Positions 2,797 to 35,837 of a DNA stretch of 43,509 nt are shown here, one piece after another. The stretch is from a virus: the IMG/VR virus record IMGVR_UViG_3300029286_001647. One strand, written 5' to 3'. The notes under the pieces are model-generated. The model saw only the letters and a program-made list of their open reading frames with translations, was not told the origin of the DNA and did no database searches. Within the stretch, counting starts at the first letter, position 1. Each line of letters begins with the position of its first letter. Made by a program: the position numbers and the translations under genes.

Positions 2797-3276
2797 TTAT
2801 TCCCCCCTCTTTAAAGCATTTTTGTAATCTTCTTCTGAAATCTCATATTCGGTACAAACTACGCACCATATATTTTTATAGCAATCGAATTCCCCTATCG
2901 CAACGAAATGCTCTTTCTTAATCTTAATAGGAATAGTAATCATCTTACTTAGCCATGCCACAGTGGTAGGTCTATCGAGTCCAGAGTACAAATACTCTGA
3001 TATCAACATCTCATTGCCATTCTCCTCCAAAAAACAATGGCATACCCCGCCATTTAGAGCCTGCCCGTCTGCAAGACAATCTATATGATTAGCCCTAAAC
3101 AACGTCGATAATGGAGTATTAGTGCCAGGCGTTAAAAGGGTATCCATGTACGGAGAAAGCAGAACATCTTTGTGATAGTCACTTACTCTGACTGCTTTAT
3201 AAAACGTCCGCGGTTGACCATCAGTCCAGGCATCGAGATACTCTTGAGTTTTTTTAGCATCTACGATTGTGCACAT
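2797..3276 (-). CDS. MC-family paralog 1 (159 aa, starts MCTIVD)
   Basis: shares N-term 'MCT(I/V)..(K/R)T..(F/Y)L..W.DG..KTF(Y/W)K.V', 'SPY', 'G..H..L' and 'IPI.IKK..F..IG.F' with 4 other ORFs. Confidence 0.6.
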   Translation of the reverse strand: MCTIVDAKKTQEYLDAWTDGQPRTFYKAVRVSDYHKDVLLSPYMDTLLTPGTNTPLSTLFRANHIDCLADGQALNGGVCHCFLEENGNEMLISEYLYSGLDRPTTVAWLSKMITIPIKIKKEHFVAIGEFDCYKNIWCVVCTEYEISEEDYKNALKRGE

Positions 3277-3743
3277 AGGTATTTTCCCTTTACTGCGTCT
3301 TCATAGACTTGTGGGTCGATTGTATATTTCAGAGAGACAACACAAGCTGTTTTCATGTCATCTCCGAAAATGCCTATTCCTCTGAAAGCATCTTTCTTAA
3401 TCTGAATTGGGATCATAGATAAGTCTTTTCTCTCACTCATAGTACGACAATAAACTTTATGAAACTCTTTTGCCTCTGATTCCAATAATAGGCAATGGAA
3501 GAATCCGCAACGAACATCTTCCATTGCGAAAACATCTTCCATCCCTTTAAATCTACCTACAGCATTATCCCCTTTATCGATAGGTATTTCATAATAAGGA
3601 GACATCATTTTAACTGGAACAGGATAGCTTCTTGACACAACGCAAGGTCCAGCGACAACCAGTTTCCAGAAGGTTTTGACTTCTCCGTCTTTCCACTCAG
3701 CGAGAAAACTTTCTGTTCTCGCTCTGTCTACGATTGTACACAT
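3261..3743 (-). CDS. MC-family paralog 2 (160 aa)
   Basis: paralogous to 2797-3276; 16-nt start/stop overlap 'ATGTGCACAATCGTAG' conserved with the next junction. Confidence 0.6.
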   Translation of the reverse strand: MCTIVDRARTESFLAEWKDGEVKTFWKLVVAGPCVVSRSYPVPVKMMSPYYEIPIDKGDNAVGRFKGMEDVFAMEDVRCGFFHCLLLESEAKEFHKVYCRTMSERKDLSMIPIQIKKDAFRGIGIFGDDMKTACVVSLKYTIDPQVYEDAVKGKYLCAQS

Positions 3744-4207
3744 TTGTATTCACCCTCCAAAGCTTTTTGATAGACTTCTGGATCTACGGAGTAGCAAGTA
3801 GATATAACACAATCAACGCCTTCATGATCCGGGAATTCACCTATGCCCAAGAAATCTTTTTTCTTTATCTTGATTGGTATGATAGATATGCTTTTATCCA
3901 TGCTAGGCAAATAGCTACGAAGTTTTTGCGCACTAGCATTATCTAGCAAAGCGTGATAAACACCACCATATATATCAGTTTTGTCGCGCCAGTCTTGGAA
4001 ACATCTAATATATCTAAAACTTTCCCCTTTAGCTATATATGCACTTTGGTATAAAGAAACTAATCCGCTTGGTGAAACCTTTCCAGTATCTTGATTTAAC
4101 GTCTGATATAGACTGAAACAAACCGCTTTGTAGAAGGTCTTTTCTTCTTCGTCTCCCCATTCAGCCAGAAACTTTTCAGTTTTTTCTTTATTGAATACGG
4201 TACACAT
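3728..4207 (-). CDS. MC-family paralog 3 (159 aa)
   Basis: paralogous; C-terminus 'EGEYKCVQS' resembles 'KGKYLCAQS' of paralog 2. Confidence 0.6.
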   Translation of the reverse strand: MCTVFNKEKTEKFLAEWGDEEEKTFYKAVCFSLYQTLNQDTGKVSPSGLVSLYQSAYIAKGESFRYIRCFQDWRDKTDIYGGVYHALLDNASAQKLRSYLPSMDKSISIIPIKIKKKDFLGIGEFPDHEGVDCVISTCYSVDPEVYQKALEGEYKCVQS

Positions 4208-4212
4208 AAGAT

Positions 4213-4584
4213 CTACTCCGCTTTATATGTATCCTGAAACCTTTGTTGTACCGCAGAAAGCGCCACGATTGCTTTAGAGCATTGGAAACCGCTCAGATGG
4301 TAGCAAAGAGCGTCTATCCCATCTGCATCGCCCTGAAACTCTTTACCGATGTTTGAGACAGAAAACAAATGATCCAGCGCCATACCGATACTCACAGAAT
4401 GCAATTCTTGAATTGCTTTCGTGATAAGGTCGATCAGTTCTTGAGGGGAATTGGCAGTGGCAACTGCTGCCAGAATCTTCGTGACAGCGGCTTTATCTTG
4501 ATCCGCCGAAAATGGATGCTGCACTTTGCAGATAGAAAGCAATTGGTCTGGACTGTAATCTTTGTTCACTTCGTTTCCTTTCAA
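4213..4584 (-). CDS. hypothetical protein (123 aa)
   Basis: ORF track. Confidence 0.5.
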   Translation of the reverse strand: MKGNEVNKDYSPDQLLSICKVQHPFSADQDKAAVTKILAAVATANSPQELIDLITKAIQELHSVSIGMALDHLFSVSNIGKEFQGDADGIDALCYHLSGFQCSKAIVALSAVQQRFQDTYKAE

Positions 4585-4612
4585 TAGAAGTCCATTTTAC
4601 CAGAAAAAGGCT

Positions 4613-4969
4613 TCACCAATCCTTTTCTCTTTGCCCACATCTTTTGCAAATATAGATACTTAAGTCACCGGCTCCCATATGTGAATACTTCCAATCGTGA
4701 CCCCATCTAGCACAATTCTCTTTATTCTGCACTTGTATCCTGTCTTCTCGTAGATCTTCGTTTTCTCTTTTCAACCTATCTACTTCTGCCTTTAGCTTGT
4801 CATTCTCTAGCTTTAAATCGTTCTGAATGTAATCTATCTCCAGTGACGATTCTTGTCTTGCTGCTTTCTTGTCAACGCTAAGACATCTCTTTCTGTGAGG
4901 AGTAGCTTTAGACTTTCTTCTACCAGATATGCCTCTAAGATTTTTGTTTGATTTGCCGTAAGGTTGCAT
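4613..4969 (-). CDS. hypothetical coiled-coil protein with C-terminal zinc ribbon
   Basis: start moved to internal ATG (MQPYGK) abutting the upstream stop; 'CKRCGQ' at C-term. Confidence 0.4.
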   Translation of the reverse strand: MQPYGKSNKNLRGISGRRKSKATPHRKRCLSVDKKAARQESSLEIDYIQNDLKLENDKLKAEVDRLKRENEDLREDRIQVQNKENCARWGHDWKYSHMGAGDLSIYICKRCGQREKDW

Positions 4970-6242: not shown

Positions 6243-6606
6243 GTTCTGCTATTTGTTTCTTAAGATCAGCTATGATACGATTTGCCCTTGCAAGCTCCTC
6301 ATTAGTCTTAGCAAGGCTCTGCATCTCTCCCATAATCTTCTCTTGGAAGTCTTTGCTTCTGGCTTCTTCTGAGAAGTTAAACAAGTGCATCATATTTGCT
6401 TCTCTAAAGATATACTCTGTAAGGACAAACAAATCATCATCATCTCTAAGACCAGTACCGCATTCACTGATTGCAGTTATAATGCTTAGATTCATCGGCT
6501 TCTCTTCTTTTAAAGCGCGAGAATAAGCTTTTGCAGCCGCCTTCATCGGTGTATCTGCGATAATTGCTGTCTCAAAATCACCACTTATAATATAATACTT
6601 TGGCAT
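6202..6606 (-). CDS. hypothetical protein with C-terminal coiled coil (134 aa)
   Basis: ORF track. Confidence 0.5.
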   Translation of the reverse strand: MPKYYIISGDFETAIIADTPMKAAAKAYSRALKEEKPMNLSIITAISECGTGLRDDDDLFVLTEYIFREANMMHLFNFSEEARSKDFQEKIMGEMQSLAKTNEELARANRIIADLKKQIAELEKNKEENDDVSG

Positions 6607-7118
6607 TACTCCTCCTTAACAGACTTTTTTAGCTCATTCAGACGCGCTATAATCTTATCTTGAACCCCTTCGAATGGCACTTTATTGTCAAACGTTGGTA
6701 TTGTATATTTCGTGACAACGGCAGAATTAGGTTCTCCTCCCTTATAATCAAACCTGCCCAAAGCGACGAAATCCTTTTTATCTACCTCGACTTCTACAAT
6801 ATAGCACTCGTATGAACAATGTATTAATTGGGCGCAATTGTTTTGAAGTAGAGCAATAGCCCCGCCTTCTATGATCGAGTCTACGCTTAAAAACAGATGA
6901 GCGCCCCTTGTCACTTCTTTAAGCTCAATCTCTAGATGAGAAAGAGTGTTATCTATTCTACTAGAATAGTTTTCACCGAGATTAATCTCCAATCCCATAT
7001 ATGGAGAAAGATATGCCTCAGGATAGCATCTAACAACCTTAAGAAATGTCTTTTTCTCGCCGTCTTTCCAATCTGCAAGAAACTTGCCAGTTGCCTCTAT
7101 ATCCGGTATTAAGCACAT
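6606..7118 (-). CDS. MC-family paralog 4 (170 aa, MCLIPDIEATGKFLADWKDGEKKTF)
   Basis: same motif set as the 2797-4207 trio. Confidence 0.6.
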   Translation of the reverse strand: MCLIPDIEATGKFLADWKDGEKKTFLKVVRCYPEAYLSPYMGLEINLGENYSSRIDNTLSHLEIELKEVTRGAHLFLSVDSIIEGGAIALLQNNCAQLIHCSYECYIVEVEVDKKDFVALGRFDYKGGEPNSAVVTKYTIPTFDNKVPFEGVQDKIIARLNELKKSVKEE

Positions 7119-7629
7119 TTTTGTTCTCCTTTACTGAGGATTTCATTCGTCTCGTCTACTATTGGTATTACAGATAGACCGGCTTCAAGAGAGGGAATGT
7201 TATATTCCATTACTACGGCACAAGTGACTTCCCCATTAGCAGTTTCAAACCTGCCTACCGCAAATATGTCTTTCTTCTCGACTTCTACAGGGATAATATA
7301 CATATTGTCCATCCCATTAAACGTGTCCTTATCTATATGATCTACTTTATTGTCTCTAGCGTGAATCAAAAGATCTTTCTGTAAAGAATCTTTTTCCAAA
7401 AACAAATGGCATCCATACATTACATATTGACCACGAATCTCGTAATCTTCTAGGTAATTGATAGACCTGGCTGACCTATTAATGCCTTTATGGACCCACA
7501 ACCTATAAATGGTGTTATGAATGTGCCATCCTTTTGTCTATTAACAAGCTTCCAGAAGGTTTTGACTTCCCCATCTTTCCACTCTGCGATGAACTTTTTA
7601 GTCGCTTCTAGATCAAGTGTTAAGCACAT
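7109..7629 (-). pseudogene. MC-family paralog 5, frameshifted
   Basis: N-terminus 'MCLTLDLEATKKFIAEWKDGEVKTFWKLV' (ATG ~7629) runs 59 codons to a stop at ~7452; the family 'GCHLFLEKD...IPVEVEKKDIFAVGRF' continues in another frame (7109-7501). Confidence 0.45.
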
Positions 7630-8611: not shown

Positions 8612-9207
8612 TACTTAGATTCTCCAAAATGAAAATTGAGACCTTGCATGAACCCACCGAGTCTCAAGAACATAAACACTTTTGCGTCCATCAGGTCTTT
8701 ATCTTTACCGGCGACAAGACCGTAGATGTCATTGGCTGTAGGAATGAATACCTCTATATCCTCCGAAGACTCATTCAGAGAGGTTGAGATTTCTCCCTCT
8801 ACTTCTGCCGCGATAACTACTGCGCATTCGTCTGTGATGCCGGGAGAATTGAACATAGTAGGAGACTCCCACAAAATCTTTGTGATTTCGAGTCCTGTTT
8901 CTTCTTTGATCTCTCTTCGTGCGGCAGACTCAGGAGTTTCATCACCATCAATCAAACCCGCTGGGAACTCTATGACGTAGTCATTGACAGGGACGCGAAA
9001 TTGGCGGATCAGAACTGGTTTGCCTTTGAGAAAAGGAATAACAACGACAGCATCAGGCTTCGTCCTTTTGGCGGGATCTTCGAGACGTGAGGCGAAAATC
9101 CAATTCCCGCGCTTACCGTTATGTTCGTAAGATGACATAAACAGATTGAGGAATCTGTAGGCAGACAACTTCAACGTTTCAATAACTTTCATTTTGCGTC
9201 CTTTCAA
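8611..9207 (-). CDS. Nudix hydrolase, probable ADP-ribose pyrophosphatase
   Basis: perfect Nudix box 'GLIDGDETPESAARREIKEETGL' (G-x5-E-x7-REUxEExGU). Confidence 0.8.
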   Translation of the reverse strand: MKGRKMKVIETLKLSAYRFLNLFMSSYEHNGKRGNWIFASRLEDPAKRTKPDAVVVIPFLKGKPVLIRQFRVPVNDYVIEFPAGLIDGDETPESAARREIKEETGLEITKILWESPTMFNSPGITDECAVVIAAEVEGEISTSLNESSEDIEVFIPTANDIYGLVAGKDKDLMDAKVFMFLRLGGFMQGLNFHFGESK

Positions 9208-24668: not shown

Positions 24669-24739
24669 CTTTTTATTCCTTTACAGAGGGATGTGAAACC
24701 TAATGAAAGATCTCACATCCCTCTTTGCCTTACAACTGT

Positions 24740-25432
24740 TTAGAATCCGCGGAAGAGTCGATCAGTGATGCCGTTATAGACCCTACGGAGCATACTGATG
24801 ATTGCGCGAGTAGTGCGCTTGATGATGTCATGAGTGCAGAACCAGAAAACGCTGAGAGGCCAGTATATCATCCACATCAAGATAGTGTCAATGTTCTTGA
24901 CAGCGCGTGGCTTAACAGCTTCGACATCATCAGTATGATACAAACTGACTCCTACGTCTACGCCAGCGCCTTCATAGGCATTGCGGATAATGTTGATAAG
25001 GTCTTGCCTTTGCTGCGAGGTAAGGTTTGCAGCGTGGACACTGATGTCCGTATTGATGCGCGAATAATACTGACGTTTGCATTCAAAAGCGATGTCTGAC
25101 GCTTCTTTGCCCTTAATAAACCACTTGATAATTGACCAAACCCCACCGCAACCAAAGAAGTAGATCAAGAAGCCATAAACGGCGTATTGCCAATTGTCCC
25201 TAACCCAGAACAGCAGATTAAAGTCAGACAAGAAGACAACGAAGGCGAGAAGGTAGAAGGTTGAGAGAGTAGACCACCATCCCTTGCCGTGTTCCTCAAA
25301 AGCGAGAATGACGGCGAGAAAACCTGCGCAAATGATCCAGAACAACGGATTTGATACAGCGAATAGTTGCCAAAACATTGTGATTCCATTTCTTGTAGAA
25401 TACACTGGAATAGAACACTGGGAAGTCCACAC
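24740..25432 (-). CDS. polytopic membrane protein (230 aa; GTG start or internal M19)
   Basis: 4-5 hydrophobic segments. Confidence 0.5.
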   Translation of the reverse strand: MWTSQCSIPVYSTRNGITMFWQLFAVSNPLFWIICAGFLAVILAFEEHGKGWWSTLSTFYLLAFVVFLSDFNLLFWVRDNWQYAVYGFLIYFFGCGGVWSIIKWFIKGKEASDIAFECKRQYYSRINTDISVHAANLTSQQRQDLINIIRNAYEGAGVDVGVSLYHTDDVEAVKPRAVKNIDTILMWMIYWPLSVFWFCTHDIIKRTTRAIISMLRRVYNGITDRLFRGF

Positions 25433-25455
25433 TTACCCAGAATTTCAACGCTTTT

Positions 25456-25484
25456 ATTTTACCGCGGAAAAGAAACACTTATAA
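25456..25484 (-). promoter_or_regulatory. conserved motif copy 1: coding strand 'AGTGTTTCTTTTCCGCGGTAAAAT'
   Basis: near-palindromic TTTTCCGCGGTAAAA core with -10-like TAAAAT, ~24 nt upstream of the 24740-25432 start. Confidence 0.4.
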
Positions 25485-25490
25485 TGGTTT

Positions 25491-25643
25491 TTAAGCCCAT
25501 CCATCACTGCCCCAATACTCTCGCGGAGTGGGAGGACCGGGAGGTTTCGGATGCCTTTTAATATACCATGCATCAAATAAATTAATGATTATAGGAACTG
25601 CAACAATCAATGTAACAAAATAGCAGATCAGAAAAATCCACAT
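25491..25643 (-). CDS. small membrane protein (50 aa), not in ORF track
   Basis: AGGAG 6 nt upstream of ATG; 'MWIFLICYFVTLIVAVPIIINLF...'. Confidence 0.35.
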   Translation of the reverse strand: MWIFLICYFVTLIVAVPIIINLFDAWYIKRHPKPPGPPTPREYWGSDGWA

Positions 25644-25667
25644 AAGCATCTCCTAGTATAAAGCATA

Positions 25668-25695
25668 ATTTTACTGCGGAAAAGAAACACTATTA
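25668..25695 (-). promoter_or_regulatory. conserved motif copy 2
   Basis: 'AGTGTTTCTTTTCCGCAGTAAAAT' ~30 nt upstream of small ORF 25491-25643. Confidence 0.4.
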
Positions 25696-25712
25696 TTCCA
25701 TGAGTAATATAA

Positions 25713-27023
25713 TTATCCCACAATCTTTCCCTTTTCAACATTTACTTTTTCTCCCTCCGCCAAGCCAAGAACTTTACTATCTAAAATGGCAAAAGGATAA
25801 CTCCCATCGGCATCTTTCCAACGCTGTACCAATACCGCTCCGATATGCACTATCCATCCAACTTTTTCTGAGCATACAGAGCATACAGATGAATTAGAAA
25901 TCTCTACTATGGAACATTGACCAGTGACAGACGAAGAGCATAATTCTCCCATGTTCTTCAATACGGATTGATCTCCAGTTGATGATTGACTGGATTGATA
26001 TCCAGTTGAGGATTGACTGGATTGATCTCCAGTTGATGATTGACTGGATCGATGTCCAGTTGAGGATTGACTGGATCGATATCCAGTTGAGGATTGACTG
26101 GATTGATCTCCAGTTGATGATTGACTGGATCGATGTCCAGTTGAGGATTGACTGGATCGCTCTCCAGTCGATGATTGACTGGATTGATATCCAGTTGATG
26201 ATTGACTGGATTGATATCCAGTTGAGGATTGACTGGATTGATCTCCAGTTGATGATTGACTGGATCGCTCTCCATTCGATGATTGACTGGATTGATATCC
26301 AGTTGATGATTGACTGGATCGATATCCAGTTGAGGATTGACTGGATTGATGTCCAGTTGAGGATTGACTGGATTGATCTCCATTCGATGATTGACTGGAT
26401 TGATATCCAGTTGATGATTGACTGGATCGATATCCAGTTGAGGATTGACTGGATTGATCTCCAGTTGATGATTGACTGGATCGATGTCCAGTTGAGGATT
26501 GACTGGATCGCTCTCCAGTCGATGATTGACTGGATCGATCTCCAGTTGTATACCCATCGTTATTCTTCTTAGAGTCTTCGACAATCCATGCAATTCTTCC
26601 AGATTGTGTAAAATACATAGCAGACGACAATGACCCATTATGAACAACTTCAACAGACTTAGCTTTCACTTTTCCTCCATCGATAGAGACTACATCAGAT
26701 GGAGTAGCAGCAAGCACCAAGAACGGCAAAGTTGCATCTACATCCTTGCCTTCCCCGAGAAACATCCCCCATGGCCAAGCGTGAATCCCATTTCCGCATT
26801 TTGGTTTAGGATCCCAATCTGGACATTCTACAATACCAGACTCAGGCCAAGTAATTACAGGAGCAGTAGTCCCATCTTCCTTATCCATACCGCCTGTAGT
26901 ACGATTTCTCTCGATTTGCTTAACGAGCAAAACCTTTGTTCCATCGTGCGTCCACTGATGGATTGGGATATCAAACACTTTTTCCACATCTTTTACTGGT
27001 TCTTTAATGTCGTTTTCAGCCAT
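25713..27023 (-). CDS. Ser-rich repeat protein (436 aa): N-terminal domain, ~22 copies of the 9-aa repeat 'SSQSSTG(D/Y/H/E)(Q/R)', C-terminal domain
   Basis: encoded by the 27-bp tandem DNA repeat. Confidence 0.65.
   Translation of the reverse strand: MAENDIKEPVKDVEKVFDIPIHQWTHDGTKVLLVKQIERNRTTGGMDKEDGTTAPVITWPESGIVECPDWDPKPKCGNGIHAWPWGMFLGEGKDVDATLPFLVLAATPSDVVSIDGGKVKAKSVEVVHNGSLSSAMYFTQSGRIAWIVEDSKKNNDGYTTGDRSSQSSTGERSSQSSTGHRSSQSSTGDQSSQSSTGYRSSQSSTGYQSSQSSNGDQSSQSSTGHQSSQSSTGYRSSQSSTGYQSSQSSNGERSSQSSTGDQSSQSSTGYQSSQSSTGYQSSQSSTGERSSQSSTGHRSSQSSTGDQSSQSSTGYRSSQSSTGHRSSQSSTGDQSSQSSTGYQSSQSSTGDQSVLKNMGELCSSSVTGQCSIVEISNSSVCSVCSEKVGWIVHIGAVLVQRWKDADGSYPFAILDSKVLGLAEGEKVNVEKGKIVG
25964..26550. 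repeat. tandem 27-bp repeat, ~21-22 copies (plus-strand unit 'ccagttgatgattgactggattgatat')
   Basis: visible directly; patterned variants at 3-4 positions per unit; all six frames open. Confidence 0.9.
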
Positions 27024-27062
27024 TGGATTTTTCTCCTAATACACTGGTTAGCAATGTTTACC

Positions 27063-27090
27063 ATTTTAAGCGGAAAAAGAAACACTATAA
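27063..27090 (-). promoter_or_regulatory. conserved motif copy 3
   Basis: 'AGTGTTTCTTTTTCCGCTTAAAAT' ~40 nt upstream of 25713-27023; preceded by a hairpin in the 3' end of 27085-27315. Confidence 0.4.
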
Positions 27091-27315
27091 GGAGATTTTA
27101 AGGTTTTTAATCTCCCACGAATAGCGATCTTTTTGATCAGTAATATAATCATATGGTGAATCTTCATGTTCAGGAAATGTCTTTTTGAACCATTCTACAA
27201 ATGCATCATTATCTTTTGCATCGTTTTTGACTTGCATAAGGTAAACGCCGGGGAAGACCCATCCATTGGAGTGGAGGACCATATCGTGACGATTAATAAC
27301 AACAAGCACTTTCAT
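27085..27315 (-). CDS. hypothetical protein (76 aa)
   Basis: ORF track; 3' end forms a hairpin followed by a U-rich tract. Confidence 0.45.
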   Translation of the reverse strand: MKVLVVINRHDMVLHSNGWVFPGVYLMQVKNDAKDNDAFVEWFKKTFPEHEDSPYDYITDQKDRYSWEIKNLKISL

Positions 27316-27428
27316 TTGTTTTCCTTTCCCGGTAAAAAGTAGTGGATTGAGTTTCCGTAGTGCTTAGATCTCTTAGCACTTGCCAGCGACCTGGTCGAAG
27401 GTGTGCAGGCTTGACAATCCATTACTTT

Positions 27429-27457
27429 ATTTTACCGCGAAAAAGAAACACTAATTA
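27429..27457 (-). promoter_or_regulatory. conserved motif copy 4
   Basis: 'AGTGTTTCTTTTTCGCGGTAAAAT' directly after the stop of 27455-27934. Confidence 0.4.
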
Positions 27458-27934
27458 ATCTCCTGTATTTTCTTCTTGAGGGTAGAAATGATATCTAGGC
27501 ACCATATAAAACTTATCTATCAAAAGCTTCCATTTTGCCATTTGTTCTATCCATTTAAAAACAGCATAATTTGTGTCATATATTTCTGGCAGAAATTTAC
27601 AGCAAGTCAATGGGCTGCTTGCTCTCCAGTGAAGACAGCAAACGTGACAAACTCCCCTATATCCATATTCTGCCGCAAGTATATATTCTGCTTCTCTACC
27701 ACAGCATGGGCAAAAACCAGCCCAGGGATATTGTTCTCTCCGTATAATATGATTTTCATTAGGCTCATTTTTAATCTGCCTGTCTCTATTTTCATTATAA
27801 AAAGCATTTGCATTCCAGCAATCAGATATAAAACCAGCAGCATGGGATGCACGTTCCATTTCTTTTGAAAGTTGTATAGCAGCTTCTTCAATCTCATTAA
27901 GGTTCATCTCGTTCATTTTCTCTCTTTTAAACAT
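27455..27934 (-). CDS. hypothetical Cys-rich protein (159 aa)
   Basis: 'FCPCCGREAEY...CHVCCLHW'. Confidence 0.5.
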   Translation of the reverse strand: MFKREKMNEMNLNEIEEAAIQLSKEMERASHAAGFISDCWNANAFYNENRDRQIKNEPNENHIIRREQYPWAGFCPCCGREAEYILAAEYGYRGVCHVCCLHWRASSPLTCCKFLPEIYDTNYAVFKWIEQMAKWKLLIDKFYMVPRYHFYPQEENTGD

Positions 27935-28016
27935 ACTTATTCTCCTATATATCTATTTTACGGAATTTATTATTTTCTATTGGTTTGCAAGGATAGCCAT
28001 GATTGTGATTATATGA

Positions 28017-28120
28017 GATGTAGTGTCTATCCCCAAGGCAAGCCCTCACTAACGTTCGTCCTTCATACAATTTCTGTAATACAGAAATTGTATTACGGAT
28101 TGGGGTTTGCGACACTACAT
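28017..28120. promoter_or_regulatory. structured element: outer 10-bp inverted repeat enclosing a 29-nt perfect palindrome (28065-28093)
   Basis: 'atgtagtgtc'/'gacactacat', 'ccccaa'/'ttgggg', central 'atacaatttctgtaatacagaaattgtat'. Confidence 0.45.
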
Positions 28121-28129
28121 TTCATATAA

Positions 28130-30126: not shown

Positions 30127-30519
30127 CTATTTCATTGACTTATAAGACTTGAGCATTAGCGCAACTCCCGCCGCAAGCATAATGATCATCAAAATAAAAT
30201 GCGTTGTCTTAATGTTCATGAAGAATTGAATTCTGCTGATAATCTCAATCCCGATAATCCCAAGACCACACCACATCAAGACCCACGCCCAAGTCCAACG
30301 TGCATTATAGAACAAAGCCACTACACCTGCGAAGAAGGGAACAAAAATAATGCCCATAGAAGTGGTATGTCCAGACCCACGAAAACAACCGCTGACCCAT
30401 CCATATCCTCCCGTAGTCACTCGAACAGAATCGAAGAAGAAATAGACTGCCAGCGCAGCCAGAAGGAAACCGATCAGATAAGTTCCAACTCCACCACTTG
30501 TTCCACCGCTACCACGCAT
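30127..30519 (-). CDS. membrane protein (130 aa, 4 TM)
   Basis: hydrophobic throughout. Confidence 0.5.
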   Translation of the reverse strand: MRGSGGTSGGVGTYLIGFLLAALAVYFFFDSVRVTTGGYGWVSGCFRGSGHTTSMGIIFVPFFAGVVALFYNARWTWAWVLMWCGLGIIGIEIISRIQFFMNIKTTHFILMIIMLAAGVALMLKSYKSMK

Positions 30520-30947
30520 TTCTTGTTTTCCTTTTCTTTTGATGGCCAGAAGTATTCAAGATTAGGACCGATGTCCCAATGAAATTGTCCGTAATGGACA
30601 GGATCTTTTCTCAACAGATTACTTTGATGACTTCGATGATAACGATTATCACCTAACCACCAAGGAATAGATACCTTGCCTAAATTAGTTCTCATTTCTT
30701 CAAACTTCGGCAGCAAGCTATCATTGTATCCCCTGCTAATCCATTCACGGCACATATAGATACCATAAACGCAAAGCAGAGGTTCAAAGCCTTTCCATTG
30801 TTTGACAGCAGGATGATTGCGCCAACCTCCGTCATTCAGCAACGTATTGAGTATCTGCCAAGCTTCGACTCGCTGTTTGCCGCATCGCCGATAATCGAGG
30901 CACTTAGCAGTTTCTCTGAACGACATATATGGTAAAAAGGTTTGCAT
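30474..30947 (-). CDS. hypothetical protein (157 aa)
   Basis: ORF track. Confidence 0.5.
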   Translation of the reverse strand: MQTFLPYMSFRETAKCLDYRRCGKQRVEAWQILNTLLNDGGWRNHPAVKQWKGFEPLLCVYGIYMCREWISRGYNDSLLPKFEEMRTNLGKVSIPWWLGDNRYHRSHQSNLLRKDPVHYGQFHWDIGPNLEYFWPSKEKENKKCVVAVEQVVELELI

Positions 30948-30995
30948 TGCTATACCTAAATCATTTTCCTTTCGACAGCCATTTTAACCGATAAA

Positions 30996-31976
30996 TCATT
31001 CACCTTTCCGTTTTTCGCGGAAATCGCAAACCCAACATTTATGTGCATAAGAGAATCGTATATTCCCATTCACTCCATCTTCTGTACGATAATCACCGGC
31101 AGATGCGTGATACTTGCACTCTTGCCATAAATGACAAGATTCACTTTTGCAGATTGGAACGCAGCCAGGAACAAATCCATTTGTCACTGCCTTTTGATTC
31201 AAAGAGATATAAGCGTCAACAGGTTCGTAATAAGGCTCTCCGCGGGAGACAAATGAATCTACTCTCGAAAATATGTCTTCTACAATCTGAACTTTGTTAT
31301 TCGATTTATGCCATTCACTCTCCCCAAAATTAGATGGAGGAACAGTATCCAACAGGATAGCACAATGAGTTTTGGCTTCCCTCATCATCTTCTTGTCATT
31401 GACAACTACGAGATTTGCCTGATTTCTCTCCAAAGACTTAAATCCAATCTCAAGAAGCTCATCAAAAGTTCTATTGATTTCGAACTTGAAAGCGACAATA
31501 AAGAAATTAGGGTCTTTATTCCATTCACGGAAATGAGTGATGATCTTTGGATTGAGAACAATCTTTTGCCTCATATACTCAATCAAAGCTTCTGGATCAT
31601 CAGATTTCAGCTTGATACCTTCACCTTCGTCTTTTTTGAAACCGAAGTCAGCAACTGCCATAGCGTGAACAATGGCATCAGCTTTCGGAACAAGAAGCTC
31701 TAGCATTTCAAAAGCGTCTTGTGCAGAATAGACTGTATAGGTCTTAACCTCTCCTCTATAGTAGTTTCTATTCGCAATAGATTCTACAATTGTCCTGCCA
31801 TATTCTATATCCTTAGACCCTGTCGTTTGTACGAAATCAACATCCCATCCCTTTTCGGAGAAGTATGCGGCTGCAATTGCTCCAAGAGCGCCAGACGATA
31901 CGTTTGTGATCAAACGAAAATCGTCTACCTTCTCTTTTGTCCCGCCTGAAGTCACGATTACTTTTTTGTTAGGCAT
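30996..31976 (-). CDS. coaB: phosphopantothenate-cysteine ligase (CoaB domain) with Cys-rich C-terminal extension
   Basis: 'KKVIVTSGGTKEKVDDFRLITNVSSGALGAIAA' matches CoaB/DFP; start set at ATG 31976 with a GGAGAG ribosome-binding site. Confidence 0.8.
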   Translation of the reverse strand: MPNKKVIVTSGGTKEKVDDFRLITNVSSGALGAIAAAYFSEKGWDVDFVQTTGSKDIEYGRTIVESIANRNYYRGEVKTYTVYSAQDAFEMLELLVPKADAIVHAMAVADFGFKKDEGEGIKLKSDDPEALIEYMRQKIVLNPKIITHFREWNKDPNFFIVAFKFEINRTFDELLEIGFKSLERNQANLVVVNDKKMMREAKTHCAILLDTVPPSNFGESEWHKSNNKVQIVEDIFSRVDSFVSRGEPYYEPVDAYISLNQKAVTNGFVPGCVPICKSESCHLWQECKYHASAGDYRTEDGVNGNIRFSYAHKCWVCDFREKRKGE

Positions 31977-34433: not shown

Positions 34434-34643
34434 TTAATCTTTTTTTCTCGCAAAAATAGCTACGAGCATCGCTACTATGAAAATCAAAACAAAAGCGATT
34501 ATCACCATAGATACCGCTGAAATAACCATAGACATAAACGCAGCTATAATCGAGGGAAATACTTTAGTAAAGAAAGGGTAATAGATAAATGCCAGAGGCA
34601 TTACTATCGCCAGCAAAAACGCTTTCCTTATTAAGTCAAACAT
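34434..34643 (-). CDS. small 2-TM membrane protein (69 aa)
   Basis: hydrophobic. Confidence 0.4.
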   Translation of the reverse strand: MFDLIRKAFLLAIVMPLAFIYYPFFTKVFPSIIAAFMSMVISAVSMVIIAFVLIFIVAMLVAIFARKKD

Positions 34644-35738
34644 TTACTTTCTCCCAAACCACCTATTATATATGACATCGTAAACACCATTTCCCCTAAG
34701 TTTCAAAAGTGCGATGTCCACTTTTTTGCGCAAATCACTATCATGGATAGCAAACCCGTAGTATTGAAGGTCAAACATCCAATCCAAAGCCATCACTTTG
34801 CCAGACCCATCTCCATTGGCAAAATACATCACATTGGGAGAATCATAGACAACAATTTCGATGTCGCCATTTACAAGCTTCTTATACGCTTCCTCAATGG
34901 TTTTTACAGTCTTAACCTTTGCGCCAATCTTCTTCAATGCACTAACACTTGTAGTGTTCTCAACAGTATACACTTCTTTCCCGTTCAAATCTGACTGGCA
35001 AGTGATAGCGCCATTCAAACGATCAGAAGTAAAGTCTGCTGCTAATCTCGCAATCAAGTTCGCAAAGAAACCATATCCTAACAAGATAAGCATAATGACA
35101 ATAGCTCTGCCTACCTTCTTTTTAGCTACAACATCTCCAAATCCGACAGTCGAGCTTGTCACTACGGAGAAGTAGATAGCCTTTCCCAGTCCGGGAATAT
35201 ACTTCTTATCGAAATGCTCTGACCCTCTTTCTGCCACCCAAATGAGATGGGCAAAGAATATGATAAAGATGGTATAAGCCATCAGTAATTCGACTACTTC
35301 TGGCTTCACAAACGAGTCTACGAAAAACTTAATAAAACGAAACTTTGCAAGAGATTTCCATTGCATAGCTTCTTTCGATTTGCCTTGAGGGATAAGCACT
35401 CTCAATCCCGAATCGAGATAATGCTGAGAAAAGTTCACTTGCTTTTCGCGATCTTCGTCAATTGTGATGCCGGATATGCCGATGTCTGCTTTGCCAGATG
35501 AGACATTCGGAATAATTTCACCGAAATCTACTACCTGATACTTGTAGGAAAGGTTTAATTCTTTTGCAATAGCCTCCCAAAGGTCTATATCAAACCCGGT
35601 GACCTTATCGCCGTCTACATTGACGCAAGGGGCGAATTCAGACAGATTGACGATTAAAGGCTTTTGTGACCCTTGTGTAGAAGGTTCTGCCGCTAGGCAG
35701 AAAGACGAAATGAATAGAATAGATAAGAGCGATTTCAT
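34644..35738 (-). CDS. GluR0-type ligand-gated K+ channel (substrate-binding-protein lobes S1/S2 split by a 2-TM K+ pore)
   Basis: signal peptide 'MKSLLSILFISSFCLAAEP'; S1 'GFDIDLWEAIAKELNL...GISGITIDEDR'; M1; pore 'YFSVVTSSTVGFGDV'; M2; S2 lobe to C-term. Confidence 0.8.
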   Translation of the reverse strand: MKSLLSILFISSFCLAAEPSTQGSQKPLIVNLSEFAPCVNVDGDKVTGFDIDLWEAIAKELNLSYKYQVVDFGEIIPNVSSGKADIGISGITIDEDREKQVNFSQHYLDSGLRVLIPQGKSKEAMQWKSLAKFRFIKFFVDSFVKPEVVELLMAYTIFIIFFAHLIWVAERGSEHFDKKYIPGLGKAIYFSVVTSSTVGFGDVVAKKKVGRAIVIMLILLGYGFFANLIARLAADFTSDRLNGAITCQSDLNGKEVYTVENTTSVSALKKIGAKVKTVKTIEEAYKKLVNGDIEIVVYDSPNVMYFANGDGSGKVMALDWMFDLQYYGFAIHDSDLRKKVDIALLKLRGNGVYDVIYNRWFGRK

Positions 35739-35837
35739 TGCAGTGAACCTTTCTGTATCATCCAGTAGAGAGTAAAGGGACAATCCGTTATCCCTTTACC
35801 CTCTCTGAATGAAACCCTAACAACGAAACGATTGTGC

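Follow-up and report, generated by a model that had tools for sequence, protein, structure and literature searches.

What are the short, near-identical sequences that recur between genes of this genome fragment, and what reads them? We examined both questions across the window, by which we mean the whole 43,509-nt stretch of DNA analysed. The repeated 25-base motif is real. Four near-identical copies lie at 25456-25479, 25668-25691, 27063-27086 and 27429-27452, as in the original prediction, and the diverged versions that it had placed near 9579-9610 and about 9941-9975 were recovered at 9581-9604 and 9940-9963, both on the minus strand. The motif reads on the minus strand, a feature missing from the prediction; this is the coding strand for almost the whole window, and four consecutive genes each have one of the four near-identical copies shortly upstream. 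The block shared by these four copies spans about 25 bp; conservation ends sharply at its edges and the flanking sequences are unrelated, so plain segmental duplication does not account for the copies.

A motif family on the coding strand

No gaps are needed to align the copies, in all of which exactly 14 bp separate an AGTG from the hexamer, and the optional C that had been written into the motif can be dropped. The element that defines the family, RGTG at this fixed 14-bp spacing, had been overlooked. The four copies are the best-conserved members (the strong class) of a larger ungapped family, RGTG-N14-TAWAAT, whose sites in the window are as follows.

27429-27452, minus strand: strong-class copy, AGTGTTTCTTTTTCGCGGTAAAAT; AGTG at 27449-27452, spacer TTTCTTTTTCGCGG, -10 TAAAAT at 27429-27434; begins two bases past the TAA stop of the gene at 27455-27934; the ATG of a 76-aa gene (27085-27315) is 113 nt downstream.
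27063-27086, minus strand: strong-class copy, AGTGTTTCTTTTTCCGCTTAAAAT; AGTG-TTTCTTTTTCCGCT-TAAAAT; the 76-aa gene ends in the TAG that immediately precedes and overlaps the box; the gene for a 436-aa repeat protein (25713-27023) has its ATG 39 nt downstream.
25668-25691, minus strand: strong-class copy, AGTGTTTCTTTTCCGCAGTAAAAT; AGTG-TTTCTTTTCCGCAG-TAAAAT; 24 nt upstream of the ATG (AGGAG before it) of a 50-aa gene (25491-25643).
25456-25479, minus strand: strong-class copy, AGTGTTTCTTTTCCGCGGTAAAAT; AGTG-TTTCTTTTCCGCGG-TAAAAT; a 212-aa ORFan gene (24740-25378) has its called ATG 77 nt downstream.
24740-27315, minus strand: the four consecutive genes (76, 436, 50 and 212 aa), each with its own strong-class copy.
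9940-9963, minus strand: diverged member, AGTGTAATTTTTCGGCGGTATAAT; AGTG-TAATTTTTCGGCGG-TATAAT; 19 nt upstream of the ATG at 9920 of a 107-aa gene, which is disrupted in the window but whole in a variant contig.
9581-9604, minus strand: diverged member, AGTGAAGTATTTTCGCGGTATAAT; AGTG-AAGTATTTTCGCGG-TATAAT; overlaps the TAA stop of the upstream 107-aa gene as found intact in the variant contig L010 (disrupted in the window); 26 nt upstream of the ATG of a 116-aa gene (9204-9554), after which comes a NUDIX gene.
17540-17563, minus strand: member absent from the original prediction; AGTG-TTTTTGTCATCTCT-TATAAT; 75 nt upstream of a 70-aa gene (17252-17464), itself before a major-vault-protein-like gene.
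4594-4617, minus strand: GGTG-box member, intergenic; GGTG-AAGCCTTTTTCTGG-TAAAAT; 24 nt upstream of the start of the gene at 4213-4569.
30981-31004, minus strand: GGTG-box member; GGTG-AATGATTTATCGGT-TAAAAT; 33 nt upstream of a Pyr_excise (endonuclease V-like) gene (30474-30947).
34665-34688, minus strand: member within the 3' end of a channel gene; GGTG-N14-TATAAT; 21 nt upstream of an uncalled 69-aa ORF (34434-34643), followed by a DUF4419 gene.
14149-14172, minus strand: candidate internal promoter; TGTG-GCATATAGATGCGG-TATAAT; inside the gene at 14034-14897, 77 nt upstream of an overlapping gene start at 14071.
30304-30327, minus strand: candidate internal promoter, the weaker case; GGTG-N14-TATAAT; inside the gene at 30127-30519, with the next start 185 nt downstream.
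12686-12709, minus strand: pattern match, AGTG-N14-TAAAAT, inside an RNase_T gene, with the next start 230 nt away; either a possible internal promoter or the single match that chance would produce.

The family is far more frequent in the window than chance predicts. Exact GTG-N14-TAWAAT sites number 13 against 0.92 expected, a count reached in none of 100 shuffles, and the AGTG form accounts for eight against 0.23 expected; a 20-mer search that tolerated up to three mismatches returned three matches against 0.01 expected. All 13 sites of the strict pattern lie on the coding (minus) strand. When the hexamer was relaxed, 21 sites fell on the minus strand and one on the plus strand, with the peak again at spacing 14 alone. 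Called intergenic DNA makes up 7.2% of the window and holds nine of the 13 sites (P = 3e-8). This distribution was compared with the outcome that had been named as refuting the prediction, equal frequency in coding DNA and random orientation, and it differs from that outcome on both counts.

The hexamer had been proposed to be a -10 element, and this assignment is supported. It reads TAAAAT in seven and TATAAT in six of the 13 sites, although TAWAAT was built into the strict search pattern and its invariance there holds by construction. Independent support comes from the pairing with GTG and from gene-relative position: among 42 coding-strand TAWAAT hexamers, 13 have a GTG at exactly 14 bp, other spacings from 8 to 23 give none or one, and 17 of the 42 are intergenic, an enrichment. 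On the opposite strand, none of 46 TAWAAT hexamers has a GTG at spacing 14. Most sites stand 19-113 nt upstream of a start codon that is preceded by an AGGAG-, GGAG- or AAGGA-type sequence. For the four near-identical and two diverged copies, the called start codon lies 113, 39, 24, 77, 19 and 26 nt beyond the hexamer end (in the order listed above), in agreement with the earlier estimate of about 15 to 115 nt.

Across the family, the invariant parts are asymmetric and consist of the GTG at -29 to -27 and the -10. The box consensus is wwRGTG(T/A)(T/A); the T-rich spacer has G or C at -16 and often G at -14 and -13, and the CGCGG block is common to just six of the 13 sites. Three or four of the pattern matches lie well inside genes and may be non-functional. 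Taken as a family, the sites are probably promoters. The strand and intergenic placement thus uphold the earlier reading of a phage-specific promoter class, and the dimeric operator that had been attached to it fared worse, as described below.

The missing -35 element and a proposed reader of the box

If these are promoters, they are not of the canonical type. No hexamer resembling TTGACA lies 16-18 bp upstream of the -10 in the motif copies; the four strong-class copies carry TAATTA, CTTATA, ATAATA and TTATAA at the -35 position, and neither tri- nor tetranucleotides were enriched at the -35-type offsets of 17-23. The extended -10 TG at -15/-14 is likewise lacking, with T at -15 in four and G at -14 in eight of the 13 sites. 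Canonical -35/-10 promoters were not enriched in the window as a whole (49 vs 40, 42 vs 46 and 17 vs 19). What the family shares with canonical and extended -10 sigma70 promoters is a TATAAT or TAAAAT at the expected distance from a Shine-Dalgarno sequence and start codon.

A scan for the canonical consensus did not report the four copies on the minus strand. It did return TTTACC-16-TATAAT at 25458-25485, a 10/12 match on the plus strand, which could be taken to mean that the copies function as antisense promoters of the form TTTACC-N16-TATAAT. This holds for one copy only. Elsewhere the plus-strand '-10' degrades to TATTAT, TATAAG, TAATTA, TTTAAT or TTTAGG, whereas the minus-strand hexamer is invariant, and the window is essentially without plus-strand genes. 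We rejected the plus-strand promoter reading, which is barely credible, on the degraded '-10' of the other copies.

Another possibility is that unmodified host RNA polymerase uses the sites as ordinary early promoters, in which the -10 dominates and the GTG and the G or C at -16 reflect a preference of the host's housekeeping or alternative sigma, with no phage factor involved. The hexamer is a perfect sigma70-type -10, and no phage transcription factor was found in the window: the domain records of the contig's called genes include no sigma, MotA, AsiA or HTH domain, and the called genes of the 43.5-kb fragment, whose genes run off both ends, gave no Pfam match to MotA_activ, MotCF or AsiA. 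However, the geometry of the sigma70 family, with its 16-18 bp spacer, is broadly conserved, and a GTG at -29 to -27 falls inside that spacer. There is also no TTG-like signal at the -35 offset, and the TG of an extended -10 is missing, as noted for position -15. We know of no described bacterial housekeeping promoter consensus of the form GTG-N14-TATAAT. On this evidence, we consider use by the host polymerase alone unlikely, yet the most serious of the alternatives to be set against a dedicated factor.

A closer parallel is offered by the middle promoters of phage T4, which combine an excellent -10 with a box centred near -30 that lies 12 +/- 1 bp from the -10 and replaces the -35 (PMC2988021). 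The family described here likewise has an excellent -10, no -35 hexamer and a short box about 12-14 bp upstream, centred near -30. The RGTG occupies -30 to -27, and the box with its W flanks ends about 12-13 bp from the -10. The two sets are also alike in density (tens of sites, about one per 2-3 kb) and in their placement before non-structural genes (PMC2988021). The sequences read are different. The T4 box is (a/t)(a/t)(a/t)TGCTTtA and the box here is RGTG(T/A), with TGCTT present in none of the 13 sites. The spacing in T4 is 12 +/- 1 bp from the box end, compared with a rigid 14 bp from the GTG in this family, and the G or C at -16 and the CGCGG block of the strong class set the motif further apart. 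T4 uses MotA and AsiA, and no homolog of either was detected in the available 43.5 kb; at the sequence level, the genome is not T4-like.

We propose that a bacterial-type, sigma-dependent RNA polymerase would transcribe small ORFan cassettes on the minus strand of this uncultured giant-phage-like genome fragment from promoters that are bipartite and rigid, in which a -10 TAWAAT (-12 to -7) is preceded, at a distance of exactly 14 bp, by an RGTG box (-30 to -27). Region 2 of a sigma70-family factor would recognise the -10, with a predicted transcription start about 7 nt downstream of it. The box is placed beyond the normal reach of sigma region 4, so its recognition would fall to a dedicated specificity factor: an activator encoded by the phage and acting in the fashion of T4 MotA/AsiA, or a phage-encoded or alternative sigma. 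The four near-identical copies would represent the consensus, as the strongest or a co-regulated sub-class, and their extra spacer conservation (TTTCTTTT...CGCGG) may have been kept by selection or by gene conversion between cassettes.

The statistics, strand, gene-relative position, fixed spacing and missing -35 were all read directly from the sequence, from which the start sites are predicted. Taken whole, the proposal of sigma-dependent, bipartite promoters that drive minus-strand ORFan cassettes through a box read by a dedicated factor seems to us somewhat better than an even bet. For one of its parts, the reading of the box by a non-host or non-canonical factor, we judge the chances to be about equal either way. 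More tentatively, the lineage may redirect host RNA polymerase through a new specificity factor (by a MotA/AsiA-like appropriation or as a new sigma) that recognises a rigid RGTG-14 bp arrangement; such a geometry is undescribed for any sigma or activator, and the redirection would proceed without detectable homologs of the T4 proteins.

The signal is solid and of an ordinary kind, with an unusual geometry. Almost nothing is known of how huge uncultured phages programme their transcription, and the motif provides a clean and statistically strong consensus with a non-canonical upstream element, one that allows transcription units to be annotated in this lineage. It also provides a handle on the protein that reads the box, which could represent a second, independent appropriation of sigma or a new sigma specificity, and its 25 bp make it a small construct that could be synthesised and tested in vitro. 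Should the host polymerase suffice to read the motif, the motif becomes a clue to host range instead. Under both readings the finding stays within known kinds of phage gene control.

Spacer conservation and the operator question

The extra conservation of the strong class had been read as a near-palindromic core, and hence as an operator for a dimeric protein. The core TTTTCCGCGGTAAAA matches its own reverse complement at 10 of 15 positions, which is the level expected by chance, and the best 7+7 inverted arms of each copy pair at four to six of seven positions, a score attained by 16-100% of shuffles with the same bases. We rejected the palindromic operator for a dimeric protein because self-complementarity did not exceed that of the shuffles.

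In its fuller form, this idea casts the conserved strong-class spacer (TTTT-CCGCGG-TAAAA) as a promoter-overlapping palindromic operator of a dimeric phage regulator, like the Lpa repeat of phage P1. Lpa-dependent late promoters of P1 do resemble the family in having a -10 and, in place of the -35, a phage-specific element bound by a phage activator, and that element is a conserved inverted repeat (PMC10695390). In line with such an operator, one copy has a perfect CCGCGG between a T run and an A run, and TTTT-(C)SGCGG just upstream of the -10 is common to six sites, beyond what the bipartite core needs. The P1 element is a 9-bp inverted repeat, whereas the element here is not significantly palindromic: even the best copy reaches 10/15, with arms at 4-6/7 and not above shuffles. 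The A run is nothing other than the -10 hexamer, just one of the four strong copies keeps CCGCGG (the others have CCGCAG, TCCGCT and TCGCGG), and the invariant positions across the family are asymmetric. An operator of this kind is therefore quite improbable.

The contiguous conservation of about 25 bp in the strong copies is also reminiscent of T7-type promoters, and some giant phages encode their own polymerases. The sites could accordingly serve a phage-encoded RNA polymerase, single-subunit and T7-like or multisubunit and phiKZ/AR9-like, and not a sigma70-type holoenzyme. A promoter of the single-subunit T7 type is a contiguous block of about 20 bp that spans the start site. The members of this family instead keep two short blocks at a fixed distance around a free 14-bp spacer, which is the signature of a sigma-type promoter, and of the two blocks the downstream one is a textbook -10. 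Genes for an RNA polymerase were not found in the window. We regard a phage polymerase as very unlikely to be the reader of these sites.

ORFan cassettes and the relatives of the contig

The genes behind the strong-class copies gave few clues to function. The 76-, 50- and 212-aa products had no significant Pfam or PHROG match, and homolog searches found no counterpart of the 212-aa protein outside the contig. The 436-aa protein contains about 27 tandem 9-aa repeats; it had no Pfam match, and its PHROG matches, to tail-fiber-like and unknown-function families, were driven by the repeats alone. The genes downstream of the sites are ORFans and non-structural genes, which argues against a late promoter class and fits an early or middle one.

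This arrangement recalls the promoter-early stem-loop elements (PeSLs) of the T4-type phages RB49 and phi1. These repeated, near-identical early promoters occupy the gap from a stop codon to the following Shine-Dalgarno sequence and flank successive ORFans in plastic genome regions, as the copies here do for the four ORFan genes, and they mediate excision and insertion (PMC2839356). By analogy, the copies may have been kept alike mainly as recombination junctions for the shuffling of ORFan cassettes, with a promoter activity that is real but not the cause of their similarity. In favour of this, copies flank each of four ORFan genes in a row, and two promoter-flanked genes vary between samples (the repeat protein, at 436 vs 292 aa, and a diverged allele between 9940 and 9581). 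PeSLs differ in having a canonical sigma70 -35/-10, an upstream A/T-rich region and a G/C stem-loop, all within about 100 conserved bp. The block shared here is about 25 bp, without a -35, and no associated stem-loop was found beside the copies; the fold of the one long leader is no more stable than expected (z = -1.7), and the window has no Rfam match to a known RNA family. Moreover, the divergence boundaries of the variant allele fall inside the gene and not at the promoters, and presence/absence polymorphism of whole cassettes was not seen among the contigs. Maintenance as recombination junctions is thus improbable, and we retain selection or gene conversion acting on promoters as the candidate explanations for the conserved spacer.

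Comparison with other genomes bears on the specificity of the signal. Uncultured phages of 460-735 kb have gene modules in common with the contig, at about 40% amino-acid identity, and lack the motif. When four distant huge-phage regions (LR756501, LR756500, LR756511 and LR745208) were put through the same analysis, none had a GTG at spacing 14, which indicates that the signal is not a generic artefact. All available copies of the contig, which come from other samples, are at least 99.8% identical and offer no informative variation in the motif, and no collection searched held relatives closer than about 40-53% amino-acid identity.

Searches for the motif itself gave chance matches: two in a scan of IMG/VR; one, inside a bacterial gene, in GTDB genomes; and 12 single matches in a scan for CGCGG variants, the most promoter-like of which lies inside an opposite-strand ORF. 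The loose pattern AGTGTTTCTTTT-N6-TAWAAT gave at least 120 single chance matches in metagenomes, with a CGCGG-type spacer in none among the matches listed. Megablast and blastn against 50,697 phage records returned nothing, or just a 122-nt patch of RtcB, and searches for related loci with the vault-like protein and RtcB found none. A seven-member paralog family in the window had no homolog outside the contig. The best non-self match of the vault-like protein is 53% identical, and the next matches are to bacterial chromosomal loci.

Motif copies and the spacing that defines the family

All six motif sites of the original prediction, four near-identical copies and two diverged ones, were confirmed at their coordinates. 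The motif as first written is the minus-strand reading, and nearly all genes of the 43.5-kb window lie on that strand. The six minus-strand copies form an ungapped alignment, so the optional C of the first consensus is not an indel. They share a block of ~25 bp, at whose edges similarity drops sharply, and the flanks of the four strong copies are unrelated. A search with the 20-mer, allowing ≤3 mismatches, gave 3 occurrences against 0.01 expected.

Members of the motif family (position, strand, class, sequence or pattern)
25456, minus, strong copy, AGTG TTTCTTTTCCGCGG TAAAAT
25668, minus, strong copy, AGTG TTTCTTTTCCGCAG TAAAAT
27063, minus, strong copy, AGTG TTTCTTTTTCCGCT TAAAAT
27429, minus, strong copy, AGTG TTTCTTTTTCGCGG TAAAAT
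9581, minus, diverged copy, AGTG AAGTATTTTCGCGG TATAAT
9940, minus, diverged copy, AGTG TAATTTTTCGGCGG TATAAT
17540, 4594, 30981, 34665 and 14149, minus, additional members, GTG-N14-TAWAAT
30304 and 12686, minus, weaker members, GTG-N14-TAWAAT

The element that defines the family, an upstream RGTG box at a fixed 14 bp from the hexamer, had been overlooked. AGTG-N14-TAWAAT occurs 8 times in the window (0.23 expected) and GTG-N14-TAWAAT 13 times (0.92 expected), a count reached by 0/100 shuffles. All 13 strict GTG-N14-TAWAAT sites are on the coding strand, where 13 of 42 TAWAAT hexamers have a GTG at exactly 14 bp and no other spacing between 8 and 23 gives more than 1; among opposite-strand hexamers the figure is 0/46. 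Allowing one hexamer mismatch yields 21 minus-strand sites versus 1 on the plus strand, and 14 is still the sole peak. Identical analysis of four distant huge-phage regions found no GTG at spacing 14, showing that the statistic does not reflect a general artefact. Called intergenic DNA makes up 7.2% of the window and holds 9 of the 13 strict sites (P = 3e-8); several of the non-intergenic ones occupy the final bases of a gene, 21-77 nt ahead of the next start.

With the hexamer at -12 to -7, the 13 strict sites carry R at -30 (12/13), GTG at -29 to -27, W at -26, a T-rich stretch from -25 to -18, G or C at -16 (13/13), and G at -14 and at -13 (8/13 each). CGCGG is common to six sites, and the four strong copies are conserved further across the spacer.

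The near-palindrome proposed as a dimeric operator is not supported. TTTTCCGCGGTAAAA matches its own reverse complement at 10/15 positions, and inverted 7+7 arms reach at best 4-6/7 pairs, which 16% to nearly 100% of base shuffles equal. CCGCGG is intact in one copy only, and the A run is the -10 hexamer itself. A plus-strand reading, TTTACC-N16-TATAAT, was also discarded; it is present in one copy and degraded in the rest.

Predicted promoters and their proposed reader

The family is real and statistically strong, and the original promoter reading is supported. Judged from sequence, the sites are very probably promoters. A sigma-dependent promoter is indicated by the rigid two-block architecture with an invariant sigma70-type -10, by strict co-orientation with genes, by a position that follows one gene's stop codon and precedes the next ribosome-binding site, and by conservation that breaks off sharply at about -32 and -7. 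The start sites, and an early or middle timing, are predictions.

The -35 positions of the strong copies read TAATTA, CTTATA, ATAATA and TTATAA, and a consensus -35/-10 scan of the window did not report these four copies on the minus strand. Canonical promoters were not in excess in the window (49 vs 40 +/- 5, 42 vs 46 +/- 7, 17 vs 19 +/- 5), no k-mer was enriched at -35-type offsets, and TG at -15/-14 is not conserved among family sites. The upstream block, at -30 to -27, falls where a canonical promoter would have its spacer, a place that sigma region 4, in its usual geometry, cannot read.

The closest described arrangement is the T4 middle promoter, which pairs a stringent -10 with a MotA box. 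That box, centred at -30 and 12 +/- 1 bp away from the -10, takes the place of the -35 and is read by MotA once AsiA has remodelled sigma region 4 (PMC2988021). The geometry is alike, but the box differs (RGTG here, TGCTT in T4). We give about even odds to a dedicated, probably phage-encoded, specificity factor as reader of the box. The chief alternative is that the host's own sigma recognizes it. None of the genes of the contig, which is a fragment, has a recorded MotA, AsiA, sigma or HTH domain.

Spacer conservation in the strong copies, and CGCGG in the six sites, might reflect selection for strength, a regulator specific to the sub-class, or gene conversion between cassettes, which has been proposed for the PeSL elements of T4-type phages (PMC2839356). 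PeSLs, however, are homologous over ~100 bp and include a -35 and a stem-loop; the window copies show none of these.

Genes downstream of the copies

A near-identical contig (≥99.8% identity) in an ENA assembly supplied gene calls, which were mapped onto the window. The strong copies occupy four consecutive gaps between genes, ahead of genes of 76, 436, 50 and 212 aa, with hexamer-to-start-codon distances of 113, 39, 24 and 77 nt, respectively; two of them start at, or ≤2 bases from, the preceding stop codon. For the diverged copies the distances are 19 and 26 nt. AGGAG-, GGAG- or AAGGA-type sequences precede the start codons.

The 76-, 50- and 212-aa proteins had no significant match in Pfam or PHROG, and the 212-aa protein no homolog beyond this contig among 5.8 billion proteins. 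The 436-aa protein (25713-27023, minus) has ~27 tandem 9-aa repeats (SSQSSTG plus two variable residues) flanked by two non-repetitive domains; it had no Pfam match, and its PHROG matches were repeat-driven, to repeat-rich tail-fiber-like families only. Its allele in the ENA contig has 292 aa, so repeat number differs between samples.

Between sites 9940 and 9581 (9605-9920, minus), one sample's variant contig, L010, carries an intact 107-aa ORF (32-355). The window's version has identical ends but a strongly diverged middle third and a broken frame; this is a local hypervariable cassette. In the related contig no gene is called in the 549-nt stretch 17465-18013 (minus), which contains small ORFs with many cysteine pairs (CxxC-like) and terminates with the promoter-like site 17540.

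The predicted promoter family is lineage-specific. The motif turned up neither in IMG/VR and GTDB genomes nor, among the matches listed, in JGI metagenomes, and no informative relatives were found. Shorter fragments of the same element come from a second ENA assembly, two Logan runs and one JGI sample, and the contig's copies scarcely differ from one another.

The surrounding element

Recognizable genes of the window, all on one strand
Major-vault-protein-like protein; RtcB
GluR0-like ligand-gated channel; PspA-like protein
Split CoaB/CoaC; DUF4419 protein
Two DNA methyltransferases; endonuclease V-like protein; HNH nuclease
NUDIX, NADAR and ADP-ribosylglycohydrolase proteins
VWA/PP2C/kinase module

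Many small ORFans are interspersed among these genes. In two uncultured huge phages, LR756511 (595 kb) and LR745208 (485 kb), the VWA/PP2C/kinase module has a syntenic counterpart of ~39% amino-acid identity, and genes of LR756501, LR756503 (735 kb) and LR756500 (462 kb) match the vault-like protein at 43-44% identity. Both contig ends cut through genes and there are no terminal repeats, so the contig is a fragment. We infer, for a window without structural genes, that it is part of a huge phage or similar large mobile element.

The vault-like gene (14965-17241, minus) encodes a 758-aa major-vault-protein homolog with MVP shoulder and Vault_3 domains, its nearest homologs being bacterial (Riflebacteria, Planctomycetota, Myxococcota; 46-53% identity). 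Together with a GluR0-like ligand-gated potassium channel (34644-35738, minus; SBP_bac_3 and Ion_trans_2) and a PspA/IM30 protein (35838-36518, minus), it is cell-biology-like and unusual in a phage-like element. A seven-member paralog family (12-365, 2797-4207, 6606-7629; minus), whose proteins begin MCT(I/V), includes three tandem genes of ~160 aa and has no homolog beyond this contig in the 5.8-billion-protein collection.

Rfam gave no family match anywhere in the window, including for a very stable nested stem-loop of ~121 nt (28009-28129, minus; outer stem ~18 bp, inner hairpin 13 bp) between the second methyltransferase gene and a 159-aa gene. The whole 195-nt gap containing it (27935-28129) folds at -53.2 kcal/mol (z = -5.3, equalled by 0/200 shuffles). 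The stem-loop might act as a structured RNA, as a terminator-like barrier or at the DNA level. At 42139-42230, 35739-35837, ~24670-24739 and 14898-14964 (minus), genes are immediately followed by strong G/C-rich hairpins. These have no U tail of the kind that classical intrinsic terminators carry, and the promoter motif does not follow them; a consensus scan of the window found no excess of classical terminators.

In the related contig the kinase gene (39061-40751, minus) reads as a single ORF of 563 aa; the window's version lacks 1 nt and falls into two ORFs, the result of either a frameshift or an assembly error. Three independent assemblies break ≤~30 nt from the same two positions (1-10 and 43495-43509), which suggests repeats or strain-variable sequence just beyond the contig.
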